Part shown: piece after piece, positions 10,538 through 54,682 of the stretch
How the letters are laid out: every line of letters begins with the position of its first letter
Numbering within the stretch: the first letter of the stretch is position 1
Assembly (NCBI GenBank): GCA_019636555.1
Contig: JAHBXH010000001.1
Span: 1,582,928 to 1,646,927 of the forward strand
From: Phycisphaeraceae bacterium
Lineage (GTDB): Bacteria > Planctomycetota > Phycisphaerae > Phycisphaerales > UBA1924
Length of the DNA stretch: 64,000 bases
Direction of reading: 5' to 3'
Notes under the pieces: generated by a model
Seen by the model: the letters and a program-made list of their open reading frames with translations, nothing else
Told to the model about the DNA's origin: nothing
The model's database searches: none
Position numbers and translations under genes: made by a program

Positions 10538-10586
10538 GCGGCTTTCAGTTTATTCGTTTCGACGCGGCTCTTGGTCGCTACCCCAC

Positions 10587-10814
10587 TCAATCCTTGCCCG
10601 TGTCCTCGCACTCCCGGCGAACCTGGATCACCAGCTCGCTCACGTGCTCGAGCGCCTTGATCGCGGCAACAACCATCGGTTCGAGCGGTGCGAGCACTTC
10701 TTTTTCAAAGCGGCGGCTGGCACTGTCGTCCCACTCGGAGCGGGCGCGCTCCCAGCGAAACCGGAGTTCCTTGACCGCGTCGGTGATGTTGGCTTGGGCG
10801 ACTTTGGTGCTCAT
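10587..10814 (-). CDS. small helical WXG100-like protein
   Basis: 75 aa, predicted all-helical, with SEWDDSASRRFEKE resembling the W-x-G...F turn of WXG100 proteins. It lies immediately upstream of the FtsK-like ATPase. Confidence 0.5.
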   Translation of the reverse strand: MSTKVAQANITDAVKELRFRWERARSEWDDSASRRFEKEVLAPLEPMVVAAIKALEHVSELVIQVRRECEDTGKD

Positions 10815-10874
10815 GAGGCTTGATGGGCGGCGGGCGATTGAGGTCGGGGCGGCACGGACGAAGGAATGAACGCA

Positions 10875-11912
10875 CTAGGAAGCTTCGGAATGCCACAATT
10901 CCCGATCGCCCTCATCGAGAATGCTCCGGACGGTGCCGCTGGCGAGAACCGCCAGGCTTCCGGGTCGAAGACCGAGAACGGCGCGGATGTTCGGAACGAG
11001 CTTTGCAAAAGCGGCGATCGTGGTGCATGCGTACCCGCCGGGCTGTTCGGGTCTGTCGAGCGGGGCGACAAACCAGCCGCTGTCGGTGCAACCGTCGGCG
11101 CGGGGCGGCGCCGATTCGGCCCGGCGGGCCAGGAACACCGCTTCGCACGCAACCGCGCGCCAGGCGATGAAGATCAGGTCGTCGTCGCCGGGGGGCGCAT
11201 CGGCGCCGGACAGCTTCGCAATCGATTCGGCGTCGGATGGGCTGACGGTTCCGGCCTGCCACGGAGTTTCGAGCGGCGCGGGCTTGAGTTCCGAGGCGGC
11301 CTCAAGCGAAATGATCATGGCCCGAAGGTGAGCGTACTTCTCGACCGTGGAGCGCAGGACGACGGTTTCGGGCTGATCGGTCCAGGATTCACCGAACGCG
11401 GACGCATCGACGGGCGCGAGATCCGGCGAAGAGGCCTGCAATCGCAGATAGTCCTCGATGGCGACCGCCATTTTCTCGAGCCGCTCGATCGCGCGAGGAA
11501 GGGTGGCTTGCACGTATTCGGTCAGCGGGCGGCAGGTGGATTTGTACATCATCGCTTCACGCTCCCAGCGAGGCGCCCATTTTCTGACGGCTTCCTGCTT
11601 GCGCTGCAATTCCTCGAGCCGTCTCTTGAGTTTCTCGAGGACCTTGCGTTCTTCGACGACGCTCACGGGCTCGGGGGCGCGCATGTACTGCTTGCGGCTG
11701 ATGTCGCTCTTGGCGCGGGTGACGGCGTCTTCGGCGCGCCGGACGGCGTGCTTGTAGTACGCGGGGCGCTCCTGCTGAAGCCACTGCCCCATGCGCCCGA
11801 TCTCGGCATCGACCGAGGCGAACGCGATGTTGATCTGCTCGATGAATTGTGAGAGCGCGACCTTCAGATCGCGGAGCGCCGTGACGGACGAGATTCTTGC
11901 GGACTCGGACAT
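10875..11912 (-). CDS. hypothetical protein: helical N-domain plus Imm33/DUF2185-like C-domain
   Basis: 345 aa. The N-terminal ~165 aa are helical and charged. The C-terminus (ACEAVFLARRAESAPPRADGCTDSGWFVAPLD...LGLRPGSLAVL) resembles the DSGW-containing DUF2185/Imm33 fold family. Confidence 0.6.
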   Translation of the reverse strand: MSESARISSVTALRDLKVALSQFIEQINIAFASVDAEIGRMGQWLQQERPAYYKHAVRRAEDAVTRAKSDISRKQYMRAPEPVSVVEERKVLEKLKRRLEELQRKQEAVRKWAPRWEREAMMYKSTCRPLTEYVQATLPRAIERLEKMAVAIEDYLRLQASSPDLAPVDASAFGESWTDQPETVVLRSTVEKYAHLRAMIISLEAASELKPAPLETPWQAGTVSPSDAESIAKLSGADAPPGDDDLIFIAWRAVACEAVFLARRAESAPPRADGCTDSGWFVAPLDRPEQPGGYACTTIAAFAKLVPNIRAVLGLRPGSLAVLASGTVRSILDEGDRELWHSEAS

Positions 11913-11958
11913 GAGAAAGGGCCAGAAGGAGAGAGCGCCGGAGAAAGCAGCCGGGAAG

Positions 11959-12231
11959 TTACCGTTGATTCAAGTATTCCTCGATCTTCTCGGCTTTGCG
12001 CAGGAGGAACGGGACGTGCTGCTCGGAAAGATCGGTGAACCGATTGAGCGTCTTCATGGTCGCTTCAAACTGCTCGACGAACTTGACCTGTTCCTGGTCG
12101 CGCCAGGTCTGTCCGAGCGTGCTCAGGCGCCCCTGCAGCGCCTGCATCTGCTGGACAAGATTGGTGTTGAACCTTTTCAGATCGAGAGCAAAGCGTCGGA
12201 GTTCGGCGGGATCGACAACTGCTTTAGACAT
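11959..12231 (-). CDS. small helical WXG100-like protein
   Basis: 90 aa with a central LGQTWRDQEQVKF (W-x-D turn at about aa 43) flanked by two helices. First gene of the four-gene string. Confidence 0.55.
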   Translation of the reverse strand: MSKAVVDPAELRRFALDLKRFNTNLVQQMQALQGRLSTLGQTWRDQEQVKFVEQFEATMKTLNRFTDLSEQHVPFLLRKAEKIEEYLNQR

Positions 12232-12828
12232 GATGCGCTCCGGACGATTGAAGATGCGGCGGATATTCCGCCATCAACATAGCAATCCGCACGTGGGTCT
12301 CTACGGAGCGATCCCCGGCGGATTGCCGGTTGAACTCCAAAAATCGAAAGTTTTGCGTCGTGCACGCCCGAGCCCCTGCAAGAGGATCGGGGCCTCTCGA
12401 CGCGCATCGGGGTCGGTCCTGAATCCGGGCCGTGCGCTCAAGGCCCGATACCGGCGCGAATCCGGGTCTTGCTTTCGCCTCGACGGGCTCGAACGCCGCC
12501 TGTGCGAGCCGAAGCTGCCCCGAGAGGACGCCCGATGTGGTGCGGGCCGGGACGCGATTTATTTGGTGGGGCGAATCGTTCCAGCGCCGGCCCGGACCGA
12601 GCTCGATCGTTACCGGTGAACGCGTTGGTTTTTTGGCGCAAGAGGGAGATTCTCTGGTCGGTGATCCCGCGCGGCAGCGTCCGCGGGTTCGTCTGCCGTG
12701 AGCGCCGATTCAGCGACGGCTCACGGATGGATCATTCGGCTCACCGACAGTCAAGGTGTCGTGAGCGGCGGGGCAACGGACGCTCCGCCGCTCTTCCCGG
12801 GGGGGAGGGGGATCGCGCACCGAGAAGC

Positions 12829-14727
12829 ATGGCACGATCGAATCAAAGCCGGAATCGAGTCCCGCTCATCGTCGGCTGCGTCGCGGTTGTTTTGGCGCTC
12901 TATCTCGGGCGTAAGGTGCTCGTGCCGATCGCCCTCGCGGTCTTCGTCGCCTTCGTGCTCGCCCCGATCGTCCGAGCCCTGGAGCGAATTCACCTCCCGA
13001 GGATGCTCGCGGTGGCCTTGACGGTCGGTGTCGCGACGATCTCCATCGGCGCGCTCGGATGGCTGATCGAGCAGCAGGCGGTCGAGGTCGCGGGCAATCT
13101 GCATGACTACAGAGATAACATCGCGCGCAAGCTCACCGCCGTGCGCCCGTCCAAGCACAGCCCGCTGGCAAAGGCGGGGACCGCGATTGAAGAACTCGGA
13201 AAAGAGATCACCAAGCCGGCGGAGGATCAGGCCGCGGTCGAAAAGCTGCGCGTGCCGCTCGAGCAGACTCCATTGGAAGTCCGAGTGGTGGAGGATCCGA
13301 CACCGCCGGTGACGTATGCCCGCGATTACCTCGGCCCGGTCCTGGCGCGGCTGGCGACCGCGGCGATGGTTATCGTCTTCGCGGTCTTCATGCTCCAGAG
13401 GCGCGAAGACCTTCGCAACCGGCTGATCAGGCTGATCGGTGAGCGGGAAATCCATCTGACAACGCCGGCAATCGATGATGTCGCGCACCGGCTCAGTCGT
13501 TACCTGCTCACGCAGTCGCTCGTGAACGCGGGAGTCGGGCTGGTTGTGGGCGTGGGCCTCTTCCTGCTGGGAATGCAGAACGCACCGTTGTGGGGGTTCA
13601 CGGTCGCGGTTCTTCGATTCGTGCCGTACGTCGGAACGTGGATCGGGTCGGCGTTCCCGATCGCCATCTCATTCGCGGTGTCGGAGGGGTGGCGAGAGCC
13701 GCTCATGGTCGCCGGTCTTGTCATCACGGCCGAAGTGATCGGGGGGAGTTTCATCGAGCCATTGGTTGTCGGCTCGGGTACGGGGCTTTCACCGCTCGCG
13801 GTCCTTGTTTCGGCCGTGTTCTGGGCGTGGCTCTGGGGTCCGATCGGGCTGATTCTTTCAACGCCGATTGCGGTCTGCCTGTCGGTACTCGGACGGCACG
13901 TGCCGCGGCTGTCTTTTCTCAACATACTCCTTGGAGACGATCCGGTCCTGCAGCCCGAGACCCGGTTCTACCAGCGATTGCTGGCGGGAGATCAGGATGA
14001 GGCCTCGAGAATCGTGGAAGAGTTCGCGAAGGGTAAAGAGCCGGCCGAGGTATGCGATGAACTGGTGATCCCGGCTCTTCGACTCGCGGAAATCGATCGG
14101 CACCGCGGAGAACTCGACGAACGCCAGGTGCAGGCGGTGCGCGACGTGCTCGGCGCGATCGTTGACGATCTCGGGGCGGAGTCATTGAGCGCGGAAGACG
14201 CTGCCTCCGAACTTCGCTCGGAAGCCACGCCGGTGTTCTGCGTTCCGGTGCACGACCTGGCGGACGAGCTTTCCGCGCGGATGCTCGCGATTCTTCTGAA
14301 CGAGCGGGGCGTGGCGGCGGAATCTCTTTTGCTTCGAGGTTCGGTTCGCGCCCTGCTCAAAGACATCGAGGAGTTGCCCCCGGCCGTGCTGTGCATCTGT
14401 GCGCTCCCGCCGGGCGCGCTTCTGCACACCAAGGTCATCTGGCAGCAACTGCGTCAGCGGGCGCCGAAGCATCGCGTGGTCGTGGGTCTGTGGGACGACG
14501 CCATCGACATGGAGAGCGTTCGGGCACGGCTGGGTCGAGCGGCCGATGAGTCCGTCGCGACCACGATGCGCCAGGCAAGCGACAAGGTGGCTGCGATGGT
14601 GGCAAATCCTTTGGGCGAGCCGGACCCGCACGCCAACGGCTTTGCCGCGAATCAACGGACGGGGGACAGCCGAAATACTCGGCCATTTGATCAAATGGCC
14701 AAGAGCGGAGAATCAAACGCGGGCTGA
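12829..14727 (+). CDS. AI-2E (PerM/YhhT) family transporter with C-terminal B12-binding-like cytoplasmic domain
   Basis: ATG at 12829 (MARSNQSRNRVPLIVGCVAVVLALYLGRKVLVPIALA...) followed by multiple TM helices typical of AI-2E. The C-terminal ~250 aa (QRLLAGDQDEA...IPALRLAEIDRHRGE...VFCVPVHDLADELSARMLAILLNERG) resembles a cobalamin-binding-type domain. Confidence 0.8.
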   Translation: MARSNQSRNRVPLIVGCVAVVLALYLGRKVLVPIALAVFVAFVLAPIVRALERIHLPRMLAVALTVGVATISIGALGWLIEQQAVEVAGNLHDYRDNIARKLTAVRPSKHSPLAKAGTAIEELGKEITKPAEDQAAVEKLRVPLEQTPLEVRVVEDPTPPVTYARDYLGPVLARLATAAMVIVFAVFMLQRREDLRNRLIRLIGEREIHLTTPAIDDVAHRLSRYLLTQSLVNAGVGLVVGVGLFLLGMQNAPLWGFTVAVLRFVPYVGTWIGSAFPIAISFAVSEGWREPLMVAGLVITAEVIGGSFIEPLVVGSGTGLSPLAVLVSAVFWAWLWGPIGLILSTPIAVCLSVLGRHVPRLSFLNILLGDDPVLQPETRFYQRLLAGDQDEASRIVEEFAKGKEPAEVCDELVIPALRLAEIDRHRGELDERQVQAVRDVLGAIVDDLGAESLSAEDAASELRSEATPVFCVPVHDLADELSARMLAILLNERGVAAESLLLRGSVRALLKDIEELPPAVLCICALPPGALLHTKVIWQQLRQRAPKHRVVVGLWDDAIDMESVRARLGRAADESVATTMRQASDKVAAMVANPLGEPDPHANGFAANQRTGDSRNTRPFDQMAKSGESNAG

Positions 14728-14728
14728 A

Positions 14729-15314
14729 CTACGCGGGGGTTTTCATCGCCGCGAGCAATTCGCCCGAGCCGGCGCCCCACTTGGTGATGCACTTGAGCGC
14801 TTTGGTCACCGGAATATCGAGCGGGTGCACGCGCGAGCCGGCGATGATGTAGACCGTTCCCGCCGCGGGCGTGGGTGAGGAAGGCACAAAGACGGTTCGC
14901 CTGCCGTCGGCGTGCTCTTCGATGATGAAGCAGGGGGCGAGCGCGTCCTCGATCTCGACGAGGGCGGGCTGGAATCCGCGGCTGTTCTCGATCTGGCCTA
15001 GTTGCTCGGCCACGCTGCGAAGCGTGGAATAGCCCGGGAGACGCTCGAGCACGGTGGATTCGAACGCGCGGCGGGCATGGCGCCCGACGGCCGTCGAGTC
15101 AGGATTCCGACGGCAAAGCAGATCAGCAGGATCAGCAGCGCGCCCATGACCATCGGGTACCGGATCGATTCGGGGAGGCCCGCGCTCACGGGTTTGACGA
15201 GGATCTCGAGGTGAACGAGCGCTTTGAGCAGGAGCAGGATGGCGAGCCACGCGGCAGCACGACGAGCATGCCCCCGACGAGAGTCGATTTCAGAAAATCG
15301 AGTGCTTTGAACAT
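14729..15314 (-). pseudogene. DUF502-family membrane protein, split over three frames
   Basis: MFKALDFLKSTLVGGMLVVLP (ATG 15314), then WLAILLLLKALVHLEILVKPVSAGLPESIRYPMVMGALLILLICFAVGIL, then STAVGRHARRAFESTVLERLPGY...VFVPSSPTPAAGTVYIIAGSRVHPLDIPVTKALKCITKWGAG. Each piece lies in a different frame. Confidence 0.6.
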
Positions 15315-15363
15315 GGTTTGTCCCGGGCAGGGGGTGTGAATCCGACCGCCGAAAAGGCGGCAA

Positions 15364-15388
15364 GAAAAAACCCCTGCTGACGCAGGGG
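15364..15388 (-). terminator. rho-independent terminator-like hairpin
   Basis: cccctgc-tgac-gcagggg. On the minus strand it is followed by a T-run (complement of aaaaaa at 15365-15370). Confidence 0.5.
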
Positions 15389-15603
15389 CTATTTCAAGTG
15401 GAGGTTACTCTCCACGGCTCGAACAATCCTCGCCGCGGAGGCCTCGGGGAAACAGTGACAGACCTGCAGCTTGAGGGCAAGCGAACAGATCTCCACACAC
15501 GCTTAGCAGAGCTTGGAAAAAGTAAGACTGTGCAAGAGCTGTTGAAGGAGGTGTTGCGTGCGGCAGCGTGACCGTGCAGCGTCGTAAGTGTATGTGCTGA
15601 CCG

Positions 15604-16896
15604 CTAGCAGGCTGTTGAACAAGGGCTGTCTGTCGGCGATCTGAAGCATGCCCCGGACGGTATGGCCGGTGCTGTTCGGATTGTTCGTGCTGCTCACGCC
15701 GCCAGCAGCTTCCGCATCCGCACCAGGTTGTACGCCGCGGCGGCGAGCTCGAAGCACTGCCCGATCTTCTCGCGTCCCACGTGCCTGGCCCGTCTCATCC
15801 CCGCCACCGTCTTGACCCATCCGAAGAACTCCTCCACCAGTTTTCTTCGTCGCTGGCTCTTCTTGAACGCGGCGCTCCGTCGTTCGCCGCGGACGAACCA
15901 TCTCGCCCAGGTTCCCTCGTCCGCACGCGTGCTCGCCCAGTCGATCTTCCCCTCCTTGATCGCCACGTGCGGCCGGATCCAGCGCTCCTCGAGCGCCAGC
16001 AGGAACGCCCCCGCGTCGTACCCCTTGTCCGCACCCAGCGTGGATGGACGCACCCCGTGCCGGCACTCGACATGATCGAGCATCGCCAGCGCGCCGGCAC
16101 GCTCGGCCGTGCCGTTGGCTTCATCCACCCGCACGCTCATCACCAGCCCGTGCCGGTTCTCGGTGAGCGCATGGCCCGAGTGACAGAGGAACGCTCCCAC
16201 CCCATTCCCCTTCTTGTAGAGCTTCGCCTCCGGGTCGGTCGTGCTGGCGTGCGTCGCGTTGGTCCGCCGCTCGCCCTTGAAGTCCCCCGATGGGTTGCGT
16301 CCCGATGGTCCATCGTCGTCTTTGTCCGACGCCTCGCGTTCGATCCTCTTCAGGCTCTTGAGCGAGGCGTGGCTCTGGATGAGCGAGCCGTCCACCGTGA
16401 AGTGCTCGTCGCTGGTCAATCCCGCATCGATCGCCTGCTTCACCACATGCTCGAAGAACTTCCTCGTGATGCCGTGCTCGGCCAGCCGGTCGCGGTTGTG
16501 CGTGAAGACCGAGTGGTCGAACACTTCGTCCGATGGCTGCAAATCCAGGAACCAGCGGAAGAGGAGGTCGGTCTTCAGACGCCTGCACAGCTCGCGTTCG
16601 GACCGGATGGTGTAGAGACACTGCAGCAGGAGCGCCTTGAGCAGCGTCTCGGGCGGGATGCCCGGCCGCCCGAGGCTGCTGTACGCCGCGGCAAACGTGC
16701 GGGTCATCTCCGCGAGCGCCGCGTCCACCATCCGCTTGATCGGCCGCAGCGGATGGCCAGTCTCGATCAAATCTTCGACGTTGAACGTGTGGTAGATCGC
16801 CGCCTGCCGACCGGGTGTGCCCTTCATGCCCTCATCTTCGCACGCCGGAAACTTCCGGTTGCGCGGGCTTTGCGGGATTCTTCAACAGCCTGCTAG
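15604..16896 (-). mobile_element. IS5-family insertion sequence
   Basis: Perfect 16-bp terminal inverted repeat: ctagcaggctgttgaa (15604-15619) and ttcaacagcctgctag (16881-16896). The outer CTAG may be a 4-bp target duplication typical of the IS5 group. It encloses a single DDE transposase ORF. Confidence 0.85.
15694..16827 (-). CDS. IS5-family DDE transposase
   Basis: 377 aa. N-terminal InsH/DUF772-like region (GRPGIPPETLLKALLLQCLYTIRSERELCRRL) and C-terminal DDE domain (LGADKGYDAG...EEFFGWVK). Confidence 0.9.
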   Translation of the reverse strand: MKGTPGRQAAIYHTFNVEDLIETGHPLRPIKRMVDAALAEMTRTFAAAYSSLGRPGIPPETLLKALLLQCLYTIRSERELCRRLKTDLLFRWFLDLQPSDEVFDHSVFTHNRDRLAEHGITRKFFEHVVKQAIDAGLTSDEHFTVDGSLIQSHASLKSLKRIEREASDKDDDGPSGRNPSGDFKGERRTNATHASTTDPEAKLYKKGNGVGAFLCHSGHALTENRHGLVMSVRVDEANGTAERAGALAMLDHVECRHGVRPSTLGADKGYDAGAFLLALEERWIRPHVAIKEGKIDWASTRADEGTWARWFVRGERRSAAFKKSQRRRKLVEEFFGWVKTVAGMRRARHVGREKIGQCFELAAAAYNLVRMRKLLAA

Positions 16897-17060
16897 AAAG
16901 GTGCGAGCATGGCAGAACGCCTGCCTGGTGCCTATGTTTGTCGAGGATGTCTCCTACCCATGCCGGCGAAAGGGTTGACGCTGCGAAATGTCTTCCGCGG
17001 AGGTTGCCGAGACAATGTGAAAACGGCTATTATAGATAACTTCAGCGAAAACGTTGCGCA

Positions 17061-17337
17061 TCACCGAACCCGCGTCAATTCACCCTTCGCCCACTCTCGC
17101 CATTCGCGTGTCTCACCCTGCATGGCGATCACTTTCAAGAGCGCGGGCGTGCGTTCGTCGGTCTTCCCCTGCTTGATCTGCAATCGCGCGAGACCCTGTG
17201 CCGCCGCGACATAGTCCGGGTAGATTTCAAGAGCCGTGCGATAGGTTGCCATCGCGTCGTCGTTGCGCCCAGCAGATTCGAGTGTCATAGCTAGGTTCAC
17301 TCGTGGATCAGGATGGCCCGGAAGAAGCCGCCGAGCC
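17061..17337 (-). pseudogene. TPR-repeat protein, 3' remnant
   Basis: ...NLAMTLESAGRNDDAMATYRTALEIYPDYVAAAQGLARLQIKQGK... TPR-like repeats ending at the 17061 stop. The 5' part is replaced at about 17338 by an Rhs-derived repeat. Confidence 0.5.
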
Positions 17338-17383
17338 CAGGTGAACAAGAGGGGGACGGTGGAGTGGTACCGGTTCCCGTACG
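17338..17383 (+). repeat. 46-bp Rhs-derived direct repeat, copy a (copy b at 19270-19315)
   Basis: caggtgaacaagagggggacggtggagtggtaccggttcccgtacg is identical at both positions. Confidence 0.9.
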
Positions 17384-18023
17384 CGCCGGATGCGATCGGG
17401 AGCTTCCGGTACTTCACGCTGGAAGGGGCGAGCTACCCGCCGGCGTGCCCGGGGTCGGACATCGGGGAGCTTGTCAAACACTTCACGTACGACGGTGTGG
17501 GGCGGCTGGTCCGGGTGACTGGGCTTTGGACTGGACGGCGAAAGATGACGAGCCGTGGGTTGAACCGGCGGACAGCGAACTCGATCTTGAGGACATCGGC
17601 TTCGACGACGAGGGCGGCTACGACGGCCCGATGGGGTACAGCCGGATTTCGCGCACCAAGTCGTCGATAGACGTAATTCGCAAATCAGCCAAGCAAGCCA
17701 GGGCTATGGCCGCGCTTCGAGGAGGAGTCTTCAGCAAATTTTCTGTAGCGCAGACAGCTACGGAGGGAGCCGGTCGCGCTCTTCAGGCGCACCACATACT
17801 TCCAAAGTGGGGGGCAAGGCAGTTTGGTTTCCTTATCAAGCACGACGATATTCCCGCCGTGGTCTTGTCGCGTCGGCAGCATGCCAGAATCGGACCGCAA
17901 GTTGATAAAATTCTAAAAGGGCTTCCTGACGGCGCATCGAAAGAGCAGGTGCTCAACACGCTTCGAGAGGTCTACAGCAGGATTTGCCCTCAAGTCATTC
18001 CGTTCTTGACTGGAATCAAATGA
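17338..18023 (+). pseudogene. orphan Rhs C-terminal fragment with AHH-type HNH nuclease toxin tip
   Basis: A YD-repeat fragment VNKRGTVEWYRFPY...DIGELVKHFTYDGVGRLVRV sits in one frame. The tip ...GRALQAHHILPKWGARQFGF...RRQHARI (AHH motif) sits in another frame (ORF 17313..18023). There is no in-frame N-terminal Rhs body. Confidence 0.6.
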
Positions 18024-18892
18024 AGAAGTACTGGAAGATCGGTGTTGGAACTGTTGATACCAACGATTCTGTTCGGCACACATTCATACAGCATGCCGGT
18101 ATTGTGAAATCTGATGATCTTGATGTCACTGTCGCCAGGACTTGGTTTGCACTCGCCGATGACGATCCACGGCTTTCCACAGTGAGGAGACTTGCGAGAG
18201 AGAATTCCAACATCGATCTCTGGGAATTTCCAGACACTCGCTTTGACCGGAAAGACATTGCCGCGGCTCCATATTCCTTTCTCGGTGGACTTGCGTGGGC
18301 GACCAGAAAATCGATCGAGGCCGGCGCCGACTTCGGCACCAAGTACGACATGTCGCACGCCTGCCGCGCTTGCGGAGCCGGTGCGCGGCAGATCGGCCTT
18401 CTCAAGGTCAAGCCGAAGGAGTTGCCGAAGAAACAACCCTGGGTGCGGACCTACCAGGGAATGCTCTACCACGAGAGCTTTATCGCGCCTCTTCGCGAGA
18501 TTAAGGGCTTCGAGAAGTGCATACGCCCCGTGGAGGCGCGGAAGGGCGGCGAGCAACTTCCCTGGTATGAACTCATCAGCGACTACACCATGCCGCGCTT
18601 GAGCGGCCAAGGGATCGAGCGGCGCGACGACCCCTGCCAGGTCTGCGATCGCGGCGACTGGTGGTTCGCGAAGGAGTTCAAGGACCTTTGGTATGAAGAC
18701 ATGGATCGCGCTGTCGATAAACTTCCTCCGGTGTGTATGACATGGGAATGCTGGACAGCGTCGTACATCTTCGCGGATGATCACAAGCGATATGCACCGC
18801 AGGGGCCGGTGGTGTGCCGCGAGATCGCGCTGCACATGTTCGACAAGGTGGGAGAGGATGCGTTGGTTGTTCCGCTTCGGTTCAAGGGCTGA
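18020..18892 (+). CDS. putative immunity protein (unknown family, two CxxC pairs)
   Basis: ATG 18020 overlaps the toxin stop (ATGA). 290 aa, visibly more AT-rich than its surroundings, with CRACG and CQVCD motifs. Its position immediately after the toxin tip is the main argument. Confidence 0.45.
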   Translation: MKKYWKIGVGTVDTNDSVRHTFIQHAGIVKSDDLDVTVARTWFALADDDPRLSTVRRLARENSNIDLWEFPDTRFDRKDIAAAPYSFLGGLAWATRKSIEAGADFGTKYDMSHACRACGAGARQIGLLKVKPKELPKKQPWVRTYQGMLYHESFIAPLREIKGFEKCIRPVEARKGGEQLPWYELISDYTMPRLSGQGIERRDDPCQVCDRGDWWFAKEFKDLWYEDMDRAVDKLPPVCMTWECWTASYIFADDHKRYAPQGPVVCREIALHMFDKVGEDALVVPLRFKG

Positions 18893-18918
18893 GGGGTCCG
18901 GAAAAGCTGAGCAGACTG

Positions 18919-20310
18919 ATGCGGATTTTGGGCTACTTGTTCGGCTTGTGCTTCGGCCTGAGCACGTGGTACACGACGGACTACGGGCACGAGGTGTCGT
19001 TCGACGGGACGCCCCCGAGTGGAGTGAGCGAAGTGTTCGAGCGGCATCACGCGGCCGACGCGCCGACGGTGACGCAGTCGAAAAACCAGCTTCCGAGCGA
19101 GTGGATGACGAACCTGCACGGGAGCGCTCTACGGGGAATCCAGTCCACCGATCCGTACGCAACACCGGCCCCGATCGAGACGCACAGCCACTACCGGAGC
19201 GACCCGAACGGGAATCTGGTGTACGACGACGAGTACTTCTATCAGTACGACGCGTGGAACCGGCTGGTGCAGGTGAACAAGAGGGGGACGGTGGAGTGGT
19301 ACCGGTTCCCGTACGAGCAGTTCTATCCGCACCCATCGATGGTCTTCGGGCACAAGACGCTGGCGATCGATCGTCTTGACGCGCCGGCGCTGTCGTGGGA
19401 CAATGGAGTTGGCTCGATCTTTGAAACCCGAAGACTGGTTCCCGGCGCGAAGCTGATCGCGTACGCGCGGAACCGCACGCTCGACATCGCCAACGGCCGT
19501 TGGCTCCAGCAGGATCCGAATGCGAGTGGAATTAGCACGCTTAGGTCTGCGATGCATGGCGCAGCACCAATCGTTTCCGCGATCTTGGTCCAGTTGGAAG
19601 AACGGATCGCGGACGGGCTAAGCCTGTTTGAGTACGGCGGCTCTGAAGTAATACAACGACGGGATCCGTTGGGCTTGTACTCCGGCGACGAATTTGTAGA
19701 AGATTTATTTGGTGCGAGTTTCAGCCTTCCGACTCCCGGAGATTTCATTCGGGGCGCTCTCTCTGGAATGGTCAGCGAGTATGCATCGAGGCAGACATGG
19801 GACGTCGAATGGGCGAGCGATTTCAACCTTGGAGACAACGAACACAGTCGGACCGAGAATCTCTGGGTGACCGTCGCGCTGATGCGAGGGTTGCGAGACT
19901 GCTTCGAGATTGGATTTGGTGACTACAAGATCAATCTGCTCGATGGGTTTGACATGGCGAGTGTCGGAGGAGGAGGTGCTCGTACCCCCAAGAGCAGAAT
20001 CCACTCGCCGCGCGGGGTCGCTGGGTACGCAAGGACGGTGTCTGTAAACGGGTTCCACGCCAGTGTTTATTCAAGACCGGGAGGCGGACGCAGTTACGTG
20101 CTCTTCGACGACAAGGCGGTTCGTGCTAATGTGAGAGTCAATGTCACCACACGAGCACAGGAGCGGATCGATGCAAACAAAGCGGCAGGGCTTTCCAAAG
20201 CACCCACTGGTTGGGTATGGCATCATCACTCCACCAAGAGAGGCATAATGCAACTTGTTCCCGAGAAATTGCACGAGAAAGTCGGCCATCTCGGCCGAGC
20301 GGATTGGTAA
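18919..20310 (+). CDS. short Rhs-family protein with WHH-type HNH nuclease toxin tip
   Basis: MRILGYLFGLCFGLSTWY hydrophobic start. YD repeats (YQYDAWNRLVQV, YARNRTLDIANGRWLQQDPNASG), a core-end motif RRDPLGLY, then a C-terminal GWVWHHHSTKRGIMQLVPEKLHEKVGHLG (WHH family signature). Confidence 0.75.
   Translation: MRILGYLFGLCFGLSTWYTTDYGHEVSFDGTPPSGVSEVFERHHAADAPTVTQSKNQLPSEWMTNLHGSALRGIQSTDPYATPAPIETHSHYRSDPNGNLVYDDEYFYQYDAWNRLVQVNKRGTVEWYRFPYEQFYPHPSMVFGHKTLAIDRLDAPALSWDNGVGSIFETRRLVPGAKLIAYARNRTLDIANGRWLQQDPNASGISTLRSAMHGAAPIVSAILVQLEERIADGLSLFEYGGSEVIQRRDPLGLYSGDEFVEDLFGASFSLPTPGDFIRGALSGMVSEYASRQTWDVEWASDFNLGDNEHSRTENLWVTVALMRGLRDCFEIGFGDYKINLLDGFDMASVGGGGARTPKSRIHSPRGVAGYARTVSVNGFHASVYSRPGGGRSYVLFDDKAVRANVRVNVTTRAQERIDANKAAGLSKAPTGWVWHHHSTKRGIMQLVPEKLHEKVGHLGRADW
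19311..19529 (+). repeat. 219-bp Rhs-derived direct repeat, copy a
   Basis: Collinear with 20950-21168 at constant offset 1639. The few mismatches cluster near 19480-19500. Confidence 0.9.
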
Positions 20311-20322
20311 GGAGGAGGCCGA

Positions 20323-20796
20323 TTGCTTGAAATAATTCACGCACTAGAAGCAAGGATCGGAACTCGGTTGCCGATCGAGTATGTGCAATTTCTACTGAGC
20401 GAGCCGCTTTCAGATCCTTTTCGAAAATGGTTCTGGTTCAAGCACTCCGTGCGCGGGAGCGTTCGCATCGGAATTCGCACCTTGAATCGGCTTCCGCCAC
20501 GGCCACCAGGAACGGGACCGGAGATTCTCAGTTATGTTGACATTTACGCCGAGCGATTCGAAGGATGTGGATTGCTGCCGCCCTTTTATCTACCCCTCGG
20601 ATCGTGCTGGGACGACGAGACACTGCTTCTCGAATTGAGGCCAGGCTTGTTCTTCGGGCGTGTCAGCCTGAAGACGTACGAAACTCTTCACGAGACCGGC
20701 GTGGACAGAGCTGAAGACGACATCTTCCCGGTCGCGCCTTCGTTCGGAGTTTTTCTCTCCATGCTCACTGATCCGCAAGAGGGTGACGAACAGTAG
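20323..20796 (+). CDS. SMI1/KNR4 (SUKH-1) family immunity protein
   Basis: LEIIHALEARIGTRLPIEYVQFLLSEP... is a typical SUKH N-terminus. TTG start 13 nt after the WHH toxin stop. Confidence 0.7.
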   Translation: MLEIIHALEARIGTRLPIEYVQFLLSEPLSDPFRKWFWFKHSVRGSVRIGIRTLNRLPPRPPGTGPEILSYVDIYAERFEGCGLLPPFYLPLGSCWDDETLLLELRPGLFFGRVSLKTYETLHETGVDRAEDDIFPVAPSFGVFLSMLTDPQEGDEQ

Positions 20797-20829
20797 AGCT
20801 TCGACACCAACCCGCAAACCGATACGCCA

Positions 20830-21225
20830 CCGACCGACCGATTTGCGTACTTCTCTGCCGCGGCGGGCGCAAACCTGCCTGCCGGCTGCCTTGGCTCGGA
20901 TATCGGCGAACTGGTCAAGCACTTCACGTACGACGGTGTCGGGAGACTGGTACGAGCAGTTCTATCCGCACCCATCGATGGTCTTCGGGCACAAGACGCT
21001 GGCGATCGATCGTCTTGACGCGCCGGCGCTGTCGTGGGACAATGGAGTTGGCTCGATCTTTGAAACCCGAAGACTGGTTCCCGGCGCGAAGCTGATCGCG
21101 TACGCGCGGAACCGCACGTTCGACATCGACACTGGCAGATGGCTCCAGCAGGATCCGAATGCGAGTGGCGTAACGCTGCTGAGTGGTACCGCATACCACG
21201 GTGCTGTTGCAGACGCGATGGCAGG
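20830..21225 (+). pseudogene. third orphan Rhs repeat fragment
   Basis: ...LGSDIGELVKHFTYDGVGRLV then (frame change) EQFYPHPSMVFGHKTLAIDRLDAPALSWDNGVGSIFETRRLVPGAKLIAYARNRTFDIDTGRWLQQDPNASG. Only ~19 aa of variable tip remain before the sequence turns into a recombinase fragment. Confidence 0.6.
20950..21168 (+). repeat. 219-bp Rhs-derived direct repeat, copy b
   Basis: See copy a. Encodes EQFYPHPSMVFGHKTLAIDRLDAPALSWDNGVGSIFETRRLVPGAKLIAYARNRT...WLQQDPNASG. Confidence 0.9.
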
Positions 21226-22130
21226 CGAGTATTCGGTGCGATTCCTGCACCAGAAGATCAAGGACATGGGCTTGACTACGGGGCTTCGAGGCAAGCCCAT
21301 CGCCTTGGCCAAGGTCCATTACGCCCTTCAGAACCCGTTCTATTGCGGGGTCATGCGGTATGGCGGAGAGCTGTTCGATGGGGCCCACCAGTCGATGGGG
21401 CCCACCAGCCACTGATTTCGCAGGAATTGTTCGAGCGGTGCCAAAAAATGCGGCGGCAGCTGGGCAAAGATGGCTTGCGGGCGCCGCTACAGGGGGTTCG
21501 CCTACCGGCGGCTGTTCCGCTGCGGCGAGTGCGGATGCACGATTTCGATGGAGGTTCAGAAGGGCCACCAGTATCTGCGGTGCACCAAGAAGAAAGGCCG
21601 GTGTCGCCAGCGGTTCCTGCGGGAGGAAGAGGCGACGCGCCAGCTCGACGCCTTGCTGGAGGCATGCTCGATGCACCCGCGGACCGCGGAGCGGCTGCTC
21701 GCCAAGCTGGACGGAATCCAGGCTTCCGAGCACGAGGCCGGGAAAGCTGAGCGAATCAAACTGCGAGAAGAGATCCGGTTGGCCGATGAGCAGATAGCTC
21801 GCCTGACCCTGGCCTTCGCGTCCAGCGACCTCAGCCTGCAGGAGTTCCGGGCTCTAAAGAATCGCCTGCTTCTGGAAAACAAAGCAAGAAGCGAGGAACT
21901 AGCCAAGCTCGAAGCCGGGAACGGCTCGCTTTGGCTCGAACCCATGCGGAGATTCGTAAATGCCTCACGTGACGCGAGTTCGATCGCAAGAGCCAAAGAG
22001 TTACGGCCGAAGGCCGATTTTACCAGAAACCTCGGCTCGAACCTGACCCTGAGGGATCAGCGGCTCGCGTGGGATCGGCGTGGGGTGTGGCAACTGGTTG
22101 AGACGTCGGAGTTTGTGTCGTTGAAGAGCT
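21226..22130 (+). pseudogene. large serine recombinase, N-terminally truncated and frameshifted
   Basis: Recombinase-domain motifs YSVRFLHQKIKDMGLTTGLRGKPIALAKVHYALQNPFYCGVMRYGGELFDGAHQ / PLISQELFERCQ / zinc-ribbon FRCGECGCTISMEVQKGHQYLRCTKKKGRC and a coiled-coil tail are spread over three frames. No resolvase catalytic domain. The ORF 21470..22309 reads through the tRNA. Confidence 0.7.
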
Positions 22131-22189
22131 TGGGGAATCGGGGAGAGGGATTGACGGAAAGGGAAAGGGACGAAGAGGACACTGGGGAA

Positions 22190-22262
22190 TGGAGCGGAGG
22201 AGAGTCGAACTCCCGACCTCATCATTGCGAACGATGCGCTCTACCAACTGAGCTACCGCCCC
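22190..22262 (-). tRNA. tRNA-Ala (anticodon CGC)
   Basis: Minus strand reads GGGGCGGTAGCTCAGTTGGTAGAGCGCATCGTTCGCAATGATGAGGTCGGGAGTTCGACTCTCCTCCGCTCCA. It has a cloverleaf with a G3:U70 pair, anticodon loop TTCGCAA and T-loop TTCGACT. CCA is not encoded. Confidence 0.9.
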
Positions 22263-22457
22263 GGATTGTGCCCACGAAGACCACAAACTCCGCGGGGTGG
22301 GGAGTGTAGCGCGGAGACGAGAATCTTCCAGCCGCGCCGACGGGTCGGGCGCATCGGTGCCCGACAAGGGGGCTCGGATCGGGCACAGGCCTCAATCCCG
22401 CACGCTGAACCCGGCCCAATTCGGCGCGAACATTCCGGGCCTCGGAGGGCTATTCTA

Positions 22458-26038: not shown

Positions 26039-26333
26039 CCAGCGTTCTCGGGCGGTCCCACTCGGGAGTATCTGTGCTCGTCAAGACGGCGGGTGGTTCA
26101 GGAGCAAGATCTGCTTCAAACAAAATTTGTTGCATCCGAACCGGAAATCGGCGATAATCGTTGTATTGGAGTGCTCGCTCTCGCAACGGACGCCACTGGC
26201 GCATCGAACGAGTGCGGGTTCCGACGACCGCCGAGCGGACGCTTGTCGGGCGATGTGCCGCGGGTGACGGCCCGCGGAGGGAAAGTGCGGCGGCGTGCTG
26301 TACAGCGCGTGTCGGCTGCAAGGGCTTTCTCAA

Positions 26334-26383
26334 AAGGAGGTGATCCAGTGATTGATTCATGTACGCAGGGGCTGCGCGGCTAA
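26334..26383 (+). promoter_or_regulatory. 15-nt perfect Shine-Dalgarno (complement of 16S 3' end) plus 11-codon mini-ORF
   Basis: aaggaggtgatccag followed at ideal spacing by GTG ATT GAT TCA TGT ACG CAG GGG CTG CGC GGC TAA. A strong terminator lies about 65 nt downstream. Confidence 0.3.
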
Positions 26384-26445
26384 GCGCGGACTCGACGGAG
26401 TCGCGCAATGCGCGGCCCTACTCCTACGTAAAACAGAACGTAGCG

Positions 26446-26478
26446 CCGGCGGCCCCGAAAGGGCCGCCGGTTGTTTTG
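26446..26478 (+). terminator. rho-independent terminator
   Basis: ccggcggccc-cgaaa-gggccgccgg followed by ttgttttg. Confidence 0.7.
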
Positions 26479-26841
26479 TGAGACGGACTGATTCGGGCGA
26501 ATACCGCCGGTTGGGGATGAACTCTTGTCGAGTGCGGCACCGATCAAGCGAGCAAGTTCGCGCCGAACTGTGAGAGAGTGACGTAGAAGGGGTCTCGCCG
26601 TGGCCACCGGCCAGTTTGATTGCTGTCTGGGCGGCACAACAGACTTGGGCCGGGAGTCGTTCCGAGCCCGCGCCACTCATTATCGACGCAAGCGCGAGGG
26701 CCTGCCGCGGGACCTGGACATTGCTTCTTGTAGTCCGCAGCCAAATCGGGCGACGGGCGAACCTTGCCCATTTCGGAACCGCGAAGTAGGGCGTTTACCC
26801 CATGCGTCGTGCAAGCTCAAAGGGACGCCCGACGCTGACGT

Positions 26842-27195: not shown

Positions 27196-27771
27196 TTGCT
27201 CCTGGAGCAGCTGAAATCGGAGGGCAATCAGGAGGCGTGGCAGCGGGTAGACGAACGATTCAGGGGAATCGTTTTTGGTGCCGCTCGAAGGGTCGGGCTA
27301 GATGAAGCCGATGCCGCGGACGTCGCACAGGAAACCATGGTTCAGTGCCTTCGGGATTTCCGGGCCGGGGGTTACGATCGGGCCCGTGGCAGGCTCAGCG
27401 GGTGGATCATCGCGATCGCACACAATCGAATATCCGATGTCCTGCGTCGAAAGCAGCGTGCGAACCAGGATGTGGGCGACACGTCTCTGGTGGCTCTGCC
27501 GGCGGTAGACGCGGTATCCGCCGCCTGGAATGAGGCACTGCGCGACGACCTCTTTCGCCGCTCCTGGGAGCGTCTCCAGGCCGAAAGCGGGCAGAATCCG
27601 GCGACGATCAAGGCGTTCGAGCTCGCGGTGATCCGCGGCGTGCCGACGCAAGCGGTCGCGCAGGAGTGCGGATTAACTGTTGACCAGGTCTATTTGGCGA
27701 AGAATCGCGTGTCGGGGAAGCTTCGCGAGATTGTGGAAGAGATGACCAAGGCGTATGAGGACGGGCTATGA
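27196..27771 (+). CDS. ECF-type RNA polymerase sigma factor (copy 1)
   Basis: 191 aa. Region 2 (ADVAQETMVQCLRDF...GWIIAIAHNRISD) and region 4 (ECGLTVDQVYLAKNRVSGKLRE). TTG start. ATGA overlap with the downstream kinase. Confidence 0.85.
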   Translation: MLLEQLKSEGNQEAWQRVDERFRGIVFGAARRVGLDEADAADVAQETMVQCLRDFRAGGYDRARGRLSGWIIAIAHNRISDVLRRKQRANQDVGDTSLVALPAVDAVSAAWNEALRDDLFRRSWERLQAESGQNPATIKAFELAVIRGVPTQAVAQECGLTVDQVYLAKNRVSGKLREIVEEMTKAYEDGL

Positions 27772-30700
27772 GCAAGGCGTCCGAACCTTGCCCGGCTGCA
27801 TCCGAGCTCGACGCTTTCGCGATTGCCGAGTCCGCATCATGCGACGGGGAGCCCGACCGAGCGATTGCTGCCCATATCGAGACTTGCGGCGCGTGCGCGG
27901 AGTGGGTGCGCAATGCCAGGTTTGCGCGCGAATTCGGCGCGGCAGCAAGTACACGGGCGCTCGAGGATGATTCAATCGAGTTTTCTCGGCCGGAGATGCC
28001 GGGGTACGAAATCGTCCGCGAAATCTCGAAGGGCGGGCAAGGGATTGTCTACGAAGCGGTGCAGTCTCGTACTCGGCGGCGGGTGGCGATCAAAGTCCTG
28101 CGCCGGGATCATGGAATCGGGCGTGCACAGCGTGCGCGTTTCGAACGGGAGATCGAGATCGCCGCAGCTCTCCATCACCCGGGCATCGTGACGGTGTACG
28201 ACAGCATGGCGCTGCCGGCGGGCGGCCATGCACTCGTCCTGGAATTCGTGAACGGGATTTCGCTCGAGAGTCACTTTGATGCGCGTTCGCACGGTCCGCT
28301 GGACGTCCGAGCAGAAGTCGAATTGGTGGCACGGGTTTGCGACGCGGTTCACTACGCCCATCAGCGCGGCGTGATTCACCGGGATCTCAAGCCCTTGAAC
28401 ATCCTGCTGGACGCCGCGGGCTCGCCGCGGATTCTCGACTTTGGAGTTGCGCGCTGGTTCGGCGCATCCGCAACCGATCGCTCGGGCGTTACGCTGACGG
28501 GCGAGTTTGCCGGAACCCTGGCGTACGCGGCACCGGAGCAGGTGGCGGGCGAACGCGGACCTCCTGACTTGCGGAGCGACCTGTATGCACTCGGTGTGAT
28601 TCTGTATCAGGCTTGCGTCGGGAAGCTGCCGTACCAGGTTCGCGGTTCGCTCGAAACGGTGATACGGAACATCACGAACGCCCCGCCCGCCCGGTTGCCG
28701 CGGCCGAAATTGGACGAGGATTTGTGGGTCATTCTCAATAAGGCTCTTTCCAAGGACGCGGAGCGGCGGTATCAGTCGGGCGCGGCGATGGCGACGGATT
28801 TGCGGAGGTATTTGCGGGGCGAATCGATCGAAGCGCGGCAAGACAGCCGTTTCTATGTGTTGCGGAAGGCGATTTGGGGCCACCGATACGCCGCGTCGGG
28901 AGTGTTGCTGGCGCTCGTCGGGCTGCTTGCGCTGGGCGCGCGGATTCAGGCTCAGAACACTCGCCTCGTGGCGGCACTGCGCGAAAGCAATAACGAACAG
29001 GCTCGTGCGATGGGCGCCGCTGGAAACCGGCCGGCGGCGCAGGCGATGCTTGCATCTGAATTGTTGCGAATCGGAGACGCGATCGAGCGGCCCCAGGAGC
29101 TGATGTTTCGGGGCACTCCGGAGCAGCGGAGCGTGCTCTGGACCGGGGCCGAATTGCAGGCTTCACAGCCTTGCCTCGCGACGGTCATGCTGCCCGCCGA
29201 ATGGGCGACGGACGCCTGGTGGGAGCACGATCGCGTCTGCGTCGTGTCCGCCGATGGTATCGAACGGGAGCGGTCGCTTCCGGACTTGCGGTTGTTGTCT
29301 GAGCGAAAATTGATCGATCGTCCGGCGTTGGATCTCCTCTGTTCTCCCGGAACGGACCGGCTGCTCGTGCGCTTCGCCGACAAGATTCAGTGCATCGAGT
29401 CGAAAACCGGGACGGTGCTTGGTGAGACGCGCTACGAGTCGGATCTTCGAACGAGCATGACGCTCGCTCCAACGGGCGATTCATTGGCCGTCTGTTCTCG
29501 CGAGCGGGGCGTCGTGGTTTTCTCGCTGCCGGACTTCAACGAACTTCTCGAAGTTCGCGATGTCAGCATCCGCCAGCGCCCGTGGATCGGTGCGAAGGGC
29601 GACCGCGTTGCGGTTGTCAAAGAGGATGGTCGCTTGATGATCTTCGGCTTGGCTTCGGGAAAGCTGGAGAAGGAGCTGCTCGTCGTATCGCAGGGGCAAA
29701 TAAAGAAAGATCCGCACGGACCCGACGACCAGTGGAGAGTGACCGGAATCGGTTCCGGAGAAATGATGGCGGTCGGACGCAGGCGTCGGGTTTGGCTCGT
29801 CAACACATTGAGCGGACAGGTGCGCCCGCCGATTCTGACAACGATCGGAAACCTCGTTGAAGGAGTGTTTACAGAATCGGGTCGCTGGCTTTTGATGCAG
29901 TCCAATCAGGACTCGCGGGTCCAGGTCTGGAGCACGAAAGATTGGCAGGAACAGGCGACTCTGCCGGGCCATGCGGGGGGAACTTCATGCGTCTTTGTTT
30001 CTCCCGACGAGCGGTACATCCTGAGCGTGGACAACGCCCGGGTGATGAGGCTGTGGGCCGGGCCCGATGCGGGCTGGCGTCGAAGTCTTCCGGATTCTCC
30101 CGTCGGGGCACACGATTTGGCGCTCGATCCGAAGCGAGAGGCGATCACGTGCGCATTCAACCAAGGCACGATTGAAACCTGGTCGGCGACCGCGCCGGGT
30201 CCGCCTTCGATCGATCGGGTTGATCCGAAAGGGGTGTACACGGTTGCGTATTCACCAGAGTTCGACGTGACCGCCGCGGCAGGCTTGACCGGCGAGATCG
30301 TGCTCCTGCGAAGCGGCGAAGAGATCGCCCCGAGGTTGACGGTTCAGTCCGGAGTCTCGGTGAGGAGCGTTCGGTTCAGTCCGGATGGTCGTTACCTCGC
30401 GGCGAGCACCGATGGCGGGAGTGCGGTCGTCTATGAGACCAAGGCATGGTCAATCGTGTACAAGATCGATGTGACGACGGGGCGGATCGCGAGTGTGCGA
30501 TGGAGTCCGAAGGGTGACCGCCTCGCGCTTGGCGTCGGCGATGGGACTTGCAGGGTTTACTCGATACCGGATTTCCGGCTGCAAGCGAATTGGCACGCGG
30601 ACAGCAAGCTCTGCCGAGCGGCAGTTTTTTCGCCAGATGGGCGAGTCATCGCGACGACGGACGAAGCGGGAACAATCCGGATTTGGGATACCGATTCGTG

Positions 30701-32130: not shown

Positions 32131-32706
32131 TTGCTGCTCGAGCAGCTCCGGGACGAGAGCAACCAGGCGGCATGGCGGACGTTTGACGAGCGCTTTCGCG
32201 ACGTGCTCTTTGGCGTGGCACGCTCGATGGGCCTTGGCGAGGCGGACGCGGCGGATGTTGCGCAGGAGACTCTTTTTCAGAGCGTGCGCGACTATCGCGC
32301 GGGAAAGTACGATCGTTCGCGCGGGCGTCTGAGCAGTTGGATCATCTCGATCGCGCACCACCGCATCGCGGACCTCCTGCGTCGGCGCGGACGTGACAAG
32401 GTCGCCGCGGGTGATACGACGATGCGTGAACTTCCAGCGGTGGAGACGGTGGCGTCCGCGTGGGAGGCAGCGCTGCGAGACAGCCTGTTCAGGCGGGCGT
32501 GGGAAAGTTTGCTCTGCGAGCAACGGTTTAGCGCGGGCAACACCCGAGCATTCGAACTTGTTGTGATACGCGGCGTGCCACCCGAGACGGCGGCGGAGGA
32601 ATGCGGGATTTCGGTGGACCAGGTGTACGTCGCGAAGAGCAGGATTTCTTCGAGGCTTCGGGAGATTGTGTCTGCGCTCAGCGCGGCGTACGAGGATGGC
32701 TTGTGA
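32131..32706 (+). CDS. ECF-type RNA polymerase sigma factor (copy 2)
   Basis: TTG 32131 gives a 191-aa protein collinear with copy 1 (LLLEQLRDESNQAAWRTFDERFRDVLFGVARSMGL...). GTGA overlap with the downstream kinase. Confidence 0.8.
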   Translation: MLLEQLRDESNQAAWRTFDERFRDVLFGVARSMGLGEADAADVAQETLFQSVRDYRAGKYDRSRGRLSSWIISIAHHRIADLLRRRGRDKVAAGDTTMRELPAVETVASAWEAALRDSLFRRAWESLLCEQRFSAGNTRAFELVVIRGVPPETAAEECGISVDQVYVAKSRISSRLREIVSALSAAYEDGL

Positions 32707-54635: not shown

Positions 54636-54682
54636 CGTTTGCCGTTCCGCAAAGCCGCGAAACCCGTTCTGTAAAATCTGGC

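Follow-up and report, generated by a model that had tools for sequence, protein, structure and literature searches.

Positions 17338 to 21225 of a 64,000-nucleotide stretch of a Phycisphaeraceae genome (assembly GCA_019636555.1, contig JAHBXH010000001.1; the whole stretch is here called the window) carry three fragments of Rhs/YD-repeat toxin genes, F1, F2 and F3, with differing tips and two candidate immunity genes (Table 1). An earlier note on this DNA had taken them for orphan-type toxin fragments, and relatives agree with this, as they show main genes accompanied by such orphans. Like orphan rhs-CT/immunity modules, the pieces are truncated at the 5' end, retain part of the conserved region and bear distinct tips with a downstream immunity gene. 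They belong to a family of giant YD/Rhs-type proteins of the Phycisphaerales and lie on a genomic island at a tRNA-Ala gene. Below, database proteins are cited by P numbers and the loci used for comparison by L numbers.

Self-BLAST of positions 17000-21600 returned the three repeats that the earlier note had listed. F1 and F2 share 46 bp at 100% identity (17338-17383 and 19270-19315; E 3e-19), F2 and F3 share 219 bp at 97.3% (19311-19529 and 20950-21168; E 2e-105), and F1 and F3 share a 78-bp block at 82% (17433-17510 and 20875-20951; E 3e-13). The initial 169 bp of the 219-bp repeat are free of mismatches and its 6 differences are grouped at the 3' end. The 64-kb window has no extra copy of any of the three. 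The pieces were mapped by tblastn with the relatives P0004, P0005, P0007 and P0009, and positions are given as residues of P0009, a full-length-looking module of 725 aa that served as template. According to this mapping the statement that the fragments share Rhs core-end sequence is correct for the 219-bp repeat and incorrect for the 46-bp and 82% blocks, which represent the YD-repeat region (template ~160-216); in intact relatives this region precedes the core end by ~180-230 residues.

Each of the three fragments is a composite without the central ~180-300 residues. The other 38 family proteins that were tested all align collinearly with the template, so that the gaps are a peculiarity of this locus and internal deletion as a general feature of the family is ruled out. 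All junctions show microhomology of 5-6 nt (GTACG, GACTGG). The GC content of tips and immunity genes is 0.54-0.57, compared with 0.62-0.67 for the repeat pieces and the genome. In the YD frame the F1/F3 block contains 9 synonymous and 1 non-synonymous codon differences, the respective ratios in the other two frames being 1:9 and 1:10; hence both copies were functional coding sequence until the joins broke the frame.

Table 1. Features of the toxin array and of the island around it (window coordinates; T, template P0009)
Feature	Position	Strand	Remarks
Left TGGAG (5-bp direct repeat)	15399..15403		left junction of the island
Genomic island, ~6.8 kb	15404..22189		at the tRNA-Ala 3' end; holds insertion sequence, TPR fragment, toxin array and recombinase remnant
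IS5-type insertion sequence	15608..16892	-	transposase open reading frame 15694-16827; CTAG flanks 15604-15607 and 16893-16896
TPR-repeat gene, C-terminal fragment	17061..17340	-	cut exactly at the start of F1; TPR_19 5e-12
F1, YD-repeat piece	17338..17516	+	T~160-219 (QVNKRGTVEWYRFPY...GELVKHFTYDGVGRLVRVT); no start, no core end; tblastn
F1, tip	17517..18023	+	post-core linker (DWALDWTAKDDEPW) and AHH-like domain (QAHHILP...VLSRRQHARI); frame differs from that of 17338-17516
Candidate immunity gene 1, 290 aa	18020..18892	+	ATG at 18020; start overlaps the tip stop as ATGA
F2 (P0001), intact open reading frame of 463 aa	18919..20310	+	T~70-173 joined in frame to T~393-end
Immunity gene 2, SUKH-1 / SMI1_KNR4, 157 aa	20323..20796	+	PF09346; AGGAGG ribosome-binding site upstream
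F3, YD-repeat piece	20833..20950	+	T~175-216 (...GSDIGELVKHFTYDGVGRLV); begins 37 bp past the SUKH stop; tblastn
F3, core end and third-tip stub (~19 aa)	20951..21225	+	T~393-470 (219-bp repeat); out of frame with 20833-20950
Large serine recombinase remnant	21226..22189	+	no catalytic resolvase domain; at least 2 frameshifts
tRNA-Ala(CGC), integration target	22190..22262	-	ARAGORN; Rfam RF00005 65.7 bits; synteny with L004 and L006

F2 is the only one of the three that has kept an intact open reading frame (ORF). Its in-frame loss of ~220 residues is located at GTACG (19311-19315). The product carries the core motifs ARNRT...GRWLQQDPNASG...DPLGL, the last of them encoded at 19663-19677, followed by a linker and by a WHH nuclease tip at ~20197-20295. 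The assignment of the tip, previously made from its motif (WVWHHH...H), is confirmed by profile hidden Markov model (HMM) PF14414 with an E-value of 8e-10 and 38.7 bits against a cut-off of 25.1; the tip also matches Colicin-DNase (1.6e-7). F2 shares 57% identity with P0002 over the C-terminal 333 aa, and the 3,067-aa protein P0041 ends in a WHH tip of the F2 type. The product of immunity gene 2 equally matches the SUKH profile PF09346 above cut-off (E 3.9e-6, 27.9 versus 25.4 bits, residues 4-146), as had been expected, and shares 51% identity (E 2e-48) with the product of the gene downstream of the WHH protein P0002 in L019, where the pairing of WHH tip and SUKH-1 is kept. Inside both copies of the 219-bp repeat (19376-19404 and 21015-21043) lies a promoter-like extended -10 match (TTGACG, 17-nt spacer, TG-GACAAT), which recalls the internal promoters of Salmonella rhs genes; it is a consensus match only, in codons that are not conserved in the family.

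F1 extends from 17338 to 18023 and passes from template residues ~160-219 directly to linker and tip, with the central region, the core end and the DPxGL motif missing and the frame shifted. Reading of the three forward frames confirmed that the tip with the QAHHILP motif is out of frame with the preceding repeat piece. As the only homology lies upstream of the frame-breaking join, F1 is not rescuable by homologous recombination. The tip, for which the database holds a gene call of its own (P0040, 165 aa), shares 38% identity (171 aa, E 3e-35) with the tips of P0010 and P0011, which stand in frame behind an intact core end. It has the motif QAHH(I/M)LP...VLSRRQHxRI, with a conserved His ~28 residues after the AHH motif. 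Its assignment to the AHH family was not supported by profile HMMs: no Pfam or NCBIfam model matched even at E<=10, the tips of P0010 and P0011 likewise do not match AHH (PF14412), and alignment to Pfam-positive AHH tips with hhalign reached a probability of only 38.8% (E 3e-4). A sequence search of the PDB was without match. The AlphaFold 2 model, based on a two-sequence alignment, is of low confidence (pLDDT 44.5) and shows the order strand-strand-helix; a Foldseek search of the PDB with this low-confidence model gave no meaningful match. The tip is called AHH-like here.

The product of candidate immunity gene 1 is Cys-rich and has no Pfam or PDB match. It shares 40% identity (E 9e-59) with the product of a 297-aa gene directly downstream of P0011 in L008, and in L009 a relative is likewise located downstream of the tip gene of the P0010/P0011 type. 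Judged by this sequence conservation, the AHH-like tip and its 290-aa partner are a genuine, conserved tip-partner pair. Each of the two complete tips is thus followed by an intact ORF for a candidate immunity protein, as the earlier note had claimed.

F3 has lost ~176 template residues and most of its tip. Its frame-breaking junction is located at GGTACGAG; the third tip, correctly described as truncated, ends ~19 aa past DPNASG at ~21225. The database gene call P0028 spans 20891-21415. At the join with F3 the adjoining large serine recombinase has lost its catalytic domain: profile positions 14-64 of PF07508 are found in one frame and 82-100 in another, and Zn_ribbon_recom in the ORF 21470-22309.

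Relatives of P0001 are confined to genomes and metagenomes of Phycisphaerales/Phycisphaeraceae in protein and profile searches. An exhaustive HMMER search delivered 932 cluster representatives at E <= 0.001, and the best 150 of these include ~25 proteins of 2,700-3,200 aa; the representatives stand for 50%-identity clusters, other members of which are hidden. A word-indexed protein search returned no family member longer than 1,570 aa and missed all giants, even one whose C-terminus was contained in the query, as well as P0010 and P0011. As these were recovered by the exhaustive HMMER search and local BLAST, negative results of the word-indexed search are not readable as absence. Main genes of the family encode ~2,700-3,400 aa, the last parts being a core of divergent Rhs type (...ARNRT...GRWLQQDPNASG...DPxGL) and a tip that varies; the variable part starts just past WLQQDPNASG, ahead of DPxGL. 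The tips include WHH, AHH, Tox-REase-9, CdiA-type tRNase, PT-HINT and unclassified types.

In intact loci of the family the main gene is followed by its immunity gene and then often by several 5'-truncated orphans, each with tip and immunity gene. In L002 a gene of at least 3,093 aa (RHS_repeat 4e-7, AHH tip 3.7e-6) precedes an Imm11 gene and a 753-aa orphan, whose first 600 residues are 81% identical to the penultimate 600 residues of the giant. Main genes of ~2,950-3,400 aa occur in L003, L010, L013 and L016, of which L010 and L016 resemble L002 in layout, and tandem arrays of at least three 5'-truncated modules in L001, L008, L011, L012, L015 and L019. Within an array each module starts 40-65 bp past the immunity gene before it, and a short trailing fragment frequently closes the array. 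In L003, from the metagenome-assembled genome GCA_041156665.1, a 2,716-aa YD-repeat gene stops 5 bp before the 698-aa P0017, which is read in another frame (9994-10003); a frameshift or an assembly error has probably divided a single toxin gene of ~3,400 aa into these two. Two genes further downstream lies a secretin gene.

YD repeats are found above the curated cut-offs in long relatives (P0023 2e-16, P0072 5e-13, TIGR01643 in P0026 4e-18). The window fragments alone are too short for a match with YD-repeat profiles; their two YD units (YFYQYDAWNRLV and HFTYDGVGRLV) align where PF05593 matches P0004, P0005 and P0009, and this alignment identifies them as YD (RHS) repeats. TIGR03696 (Rhs_assc_core) matches relatives in the right place with 19-28 bits, always below its cut-off of 32.5, and F3 with 17 bits, whereas F2 has no match. 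Because the YD repeats pass curated cut-offs and the TIGR03696 matches, though below cut-off, fall in the right place, this is a divergent Rhs/YD-type polymorphic toxin family.

The earlier note saw in the array silent cassettes of core end plus tip, kept for being swapped through their shared repeats into a full-length rhs gene elsewhere in the genome. Recombination between main gene and orphan is known from Salmonella, where it uses a block of 522 bp with 95% identity (PMC3967940); within the family, L002 has this layout together with long homology, and F2 retains 219 bp of core end together with an intact tip and an immunity gene. At most F2, one of the three, is usable in this way, as all three composites lack the central region, F1 is frame-broken and has no core end, and F3 is frame-broken and has no tip. 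In addition, orphans are found directly downstream of the main gene in every relative examined, and exchange with a distant main gene would require gene conversion or a double crossover, not a simple deletion of the Salmonella type.

As already noted from the sequence, the window contains no full-length Rhs gene: its large ORFs are unrelated, the giants match it only at 17326-21367 and only with their last ~600 residues, and the N-terminal delivery/shell region (>1,000 aa), which is present in relatives, is absent. Upstream of F1, at the place of the main gene in other arrays, are the opposite-strand TPR fragment, the insertion sequence (IS) and the edge of the island. From the 3.79-Mb source contig the profile search returned only the window-encoded P0001 and P0028, a weak negative since this search misses giants. 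None of the 25 giants checked among the best 150 representatives is from this contig, again a weak negative in view of the 50%-identity clusters, and identity to F2 does not exceed 49% in any representative giant. For a 59-mer taken from the 219-bp repeat there was no exact match in a genome collection whose sequences do not include the source contig, and a 40-mer of the 46-bp block and a 26-mer of the core end had none in a metagenome collection that likewise does not include it. A search for public sequencing runs with this region found none. Protein and pattern searches hence provide no evidence for a recombination partner, and do not prove its absence. That the main gene must lie elsewhere, as the earlier note stated, is unproven: its normal place in this family is directly upstream, and here the array is on a degraded tRNA-Ala island that relatives lack. 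Taken together, a store of exchangeable cassettes is an unlikely explanation of the locus.

The borders of this island were established by comparison with relatives. Homology to contigs of related species (80-88% DNA identity, with an identical WXG100 protein) ends at 22190 and restarts at ~15262-15403; in these contigs the DUF502 gene, a terminator, tRNA-Ala and ZnuA are found side by side, without the island. In L004 and L006 '...TTTCAAG' continues directly into the tRNA 3' end 'TGGAGCGGAGG', whereas in the window '...TTTCAAGTGGAG' is followed by unrelated sequence at the left junction. Because homology breaks at the tRNA 3' end and at ~15403 and TGGAG stands at both junctions, the right copy being the tRNA-Ala 3' end itself (22190-22194), the segment between them is an inserted island. 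It has the attributes of a tRNA-integrated element, namely position at a tRNA 3' end, a direct repeat (of only 5 bp), absence from relatives and a recombinase at one end. The IS5-type element within it (DUF772 2.5e-24, DDE_Tnp_1 1e-13) has 19-nt terminal inverted repeats that are 95% complementary. These intact inverted repeats, with CTAG on both sides, indicate a simple insertion, so that IS-mediated deletion is ruled out as cause of the truncations. In the ORF 17061-17417, TPR_19 and other TPR models match residues 25-100, and the first ~25 codons are the reverse strand of F1.

Since 4 kb contain five rearrangement junctions and two broken frames, the recombinase is dead, the TPR gene is truncated and an IS has inserted, the array might be regarded as mere genetic debris under no remaining selection, in which the intact ORFs have just not been hit yet. 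We consider this improbable: tip 1, immunity gene 1, F2 and the SUKH gene, ~3.2 kb in total, are all uninterrupted with their motif residues kept, the four ORFs retain 38-57% identity to relatives, translational coupling is preserved, and the recombinase, of similar length, has already acquired at least two frameshifts.

Another explanation for the intact genes is that F2 and the SUKH gene, perhaps also tip 1 and its partner, form an intracellular toxin-antitoxin or addiction module that stabilises the island and is expressed from own or internal starts. Salmonella orphan Rhs toxins use internal promoters and act as type II toxin-antitoxin modules (PMC7043789). F2 is an intact ORF with an ATG, its immunity gene has an AGGAGG ribosome-binding site, and the ATGA overlap of tip 1 and immunity gene 1 is preserved; promoter-like matches occur upstream of F2 (18752-18781) in addition to the pair inside the 219-bp repeat. 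These matches are, however, to the consensus only, under sigma-70 rules that are unverified for this phylum, and the lack of codon conservation at the repeat-internal one also counts against the idea. Expression of F2 and the SUKH gene is only predicted, and as the other genes of the island are dead, little is left to stabilise. The proposal is accordingly doubtful.

The reading that we favour, with a probability of roughly 0.55, is that of a decayed array of three orphan modules from the Phycisphaerales-specific giant YD/Rhs-type family on a degraded 6.8-kb tRNA-Ala island. Illegitimate joins at the microhomologies GTACG and GACTGG would have produced three composites without central repeats. 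F1 would have arisen from a YD piece joined out of frame to linker and AHH-like tip, F2 from an N-proximal YD piece joined in frame to core end and WHH nuclease tip, and F3 from a YD piece joined out of frame to a core end, its tip being deleted along with the catalytic half of the serine recombinase. The AHH-like tip/290-aa protein pair and the WHH tip/SUKH-1 pair are what is still intact. By analogy with intact loci of the family and with enterobacterial rhs orphans, the tips are predicted to be nucleases of the HNH superfamily that are toxic when expressed and neutralised by their partner proteins. No tip should be exportable from this locus, because the delivery part of ~2,400 residues is absent. 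Any current benefit would mainly consist in the two immunity genes shielding the cell from relatives armed with these tips, and F2 would be the sole cassette rescuable by recombination, via its 219-bp core end, given a matching main gene.

Several points weigh against this reading. The activity of F2 and of the immunity genes is itself predicted, and an intact 463-aa ORF with its own ATG is not what pure decay would lead to, as the chance of an in-frame join is 1 in 3. The right-hand junction of F2 and F3 is exactly shared and the left-hand junction of F1 and F3 nearly so; recombination among modules or serial capture would explain this better than random deletions that occurred independently. 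The history may thus be more complex than 'decay', and a main gene of the family may be present elsewhere in the same genome.

Two histories are about equally compatible with the array: either several microhomology-mediated deletions occurred within a normal array, or donor segments, each comprising a tip, its immunity gene and the beginning of the next orphan in the donor, were inserted one after another just upstream of a core end already present. The core-end blocks of F2 and F3 start at the same GTACG, and the pieces joined to them (template ~173 and ~216) also end in GTACG. The upstream pieces moreover look like the trailing fragments at the array ends of L001, L011, L015 and L019, and would here derive from the next orphan of a donor. 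The idea that the composites were left by incoming toxin-immunity segments being captured one after another at a single preferred short site is nevertheless rated as very unlikely. If it were true, growth of arrays in this family would occur by insertion at a preferred site immediately upstream of the core end, guided by microhomology or restriction ends, and in the island Planctomycetota would have a mobile carrier of immunity genes.

Outside the island, the window contains a type VII secretion-like cluster on the reverse strand (6626-12231) with genes for WXG100 (11959-12231), a 345-aa protein with a weak Imm33-like match (10875-11912), a protein of ~75 aa and an FtsK/SpoIIIE ATPase of 1,303 aa (6626-10537). 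A link between the array and this WXG100/FtsK-SpoIIIE cluster is ruled out, as the cluster is kept in the island-less L004, L005 and L007 and does not occur at the other toxin loci examined. L004 (7418-10001) has, between the AI-2E transporter and WXG100, three extra genes (YflT-like, BON and Kdo_hydroxy; 2.6 kb) compared with window positions 12231-12853, and L006 shows a third arrangement; this region varies among related genomes independently of the island. The intergenic region 26112-26477 (~360 bp) is 89-94% identical to L004 and L006, compared with ~80% for the flanking genes, and has sharp conservation borders. Its forward strand carries AAGGAGGTGATCC, which is perfectly complementary to the 16S rRNA 3' end over 13 nt, together with a 40-aa ORF (26359-26481) and a terminal GC-rich hairpin with T-run. 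Its sole Rfam match is CC2171 with 20.6 bits against a gathering score of 75. This region is possibly a small RNA that has escaped annotation, or else a leader containing a small ORF. Positions 54682-54785 form a perfect tandem array of ~13 copies of the 8-bp unit CTTTGCCC, and 27768-30929 and 32601-35891 encode paralogous fusions of a Ser/Thr protein kinase with a WD40 beta-propeller (1,053 and 1,096 aa) that share DNA blocks of 71-77% identity.

The annotation of the locus is thus to be corrected from a working Rhs cassette store to the remnant of a polymorphic-toxin array on a dead island, in which two immunity genes are probably still useful and perhaps one toxin-immunity pair as well. At the same time a large, little-described family of ~3,000-aa YD/Rhs-type toxins of the Phycisphaerales is outlined, with 932 representatives, many tips and frequent orphan arrays, and the AHH-like tip with its ~290-aa partner emerges from sequence comparison as a new conserved pair without Pfam family and a candidate nuclease/immunity pair. 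Loci of this kind are a record of past strain-to-strain warfare in a phylum in which contact-dependent antagonism has hardly been studied.

Among known systems, the AID / rAID-1 islands of Bacteroidales are orphan immunity genes on mobile elements beside a recombinase, with skewed GC content (Ross et al. 2019, 10.1101/471110). The window shares with them immunity genes on a mobile element by a recombinase, the GC skew and a presumed protection from the toxins of neighbours. rAID-1 clusters are defined by an XerD-like tyrosine recombinase in 5' position, co-oriented orphan immunity genes and repetitive intergenic motifs (10.1101/471110), and the locus is not one of them: it has only two immunity genes, with toxin tips still attached, and its recombinase is of the serine type, dead and 3' of the array. 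No repetitive integron-like intergenic motif was found, the sole repeats in the array being gene fragments. With respect to the AHH and WHH tips of the HNH/EndoVII superfamily (PF14412, PF14414) and their SUKH immunity proteins, the F2 tip is a WHH domain with a SUKH-1 partner. The F1 tip resembles AHH tips in its motif, in the His ~28 residues further on and, as far as the low-confidence model suggests, in a strand-strand-helix arrangement; it differs from AHH nucleases in the missing profile match and in its 290-aa Cys-rich partner of no known family.

The closest counterparts are the enterobacterial orphan rhs-CT/rhsI modules, e.g. STM0292 of Salmonella Typhimurium LT2 (Poole 2011 PMC3150448; Koskiniemi 2014 PMC3967940). 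Common to both are 5'-truncated fragments with part of the conserved region, distinct tips and own immunity genes, arranged in tandem and in one orientation, and in relatives of the window family main gene and orphans are likewise arranged in this way and share long blocks of homology. In contrast to the enterobacterial modules, the window has no adjacent main gene, the central region is lost, one module is without the whole core end and two are frame-broken. The parent family consists of ~3,000-aa Phycisphaerales proteins with a divergent core below the TIGR03696 cut-off, and no type VI secretion system or other known export partner was seen. The locus works like, and descends from, orphan rhs-CT/immunity arrays, with more rearrangement than such arrays typically show. 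As a largely decayed case of a known kind of locus it is ordinary, and its interest lies chiefly in the little-studied giant toxin family of the Phycisphaerales and in the unclassified AHH-like tip with its 290-aa partner.

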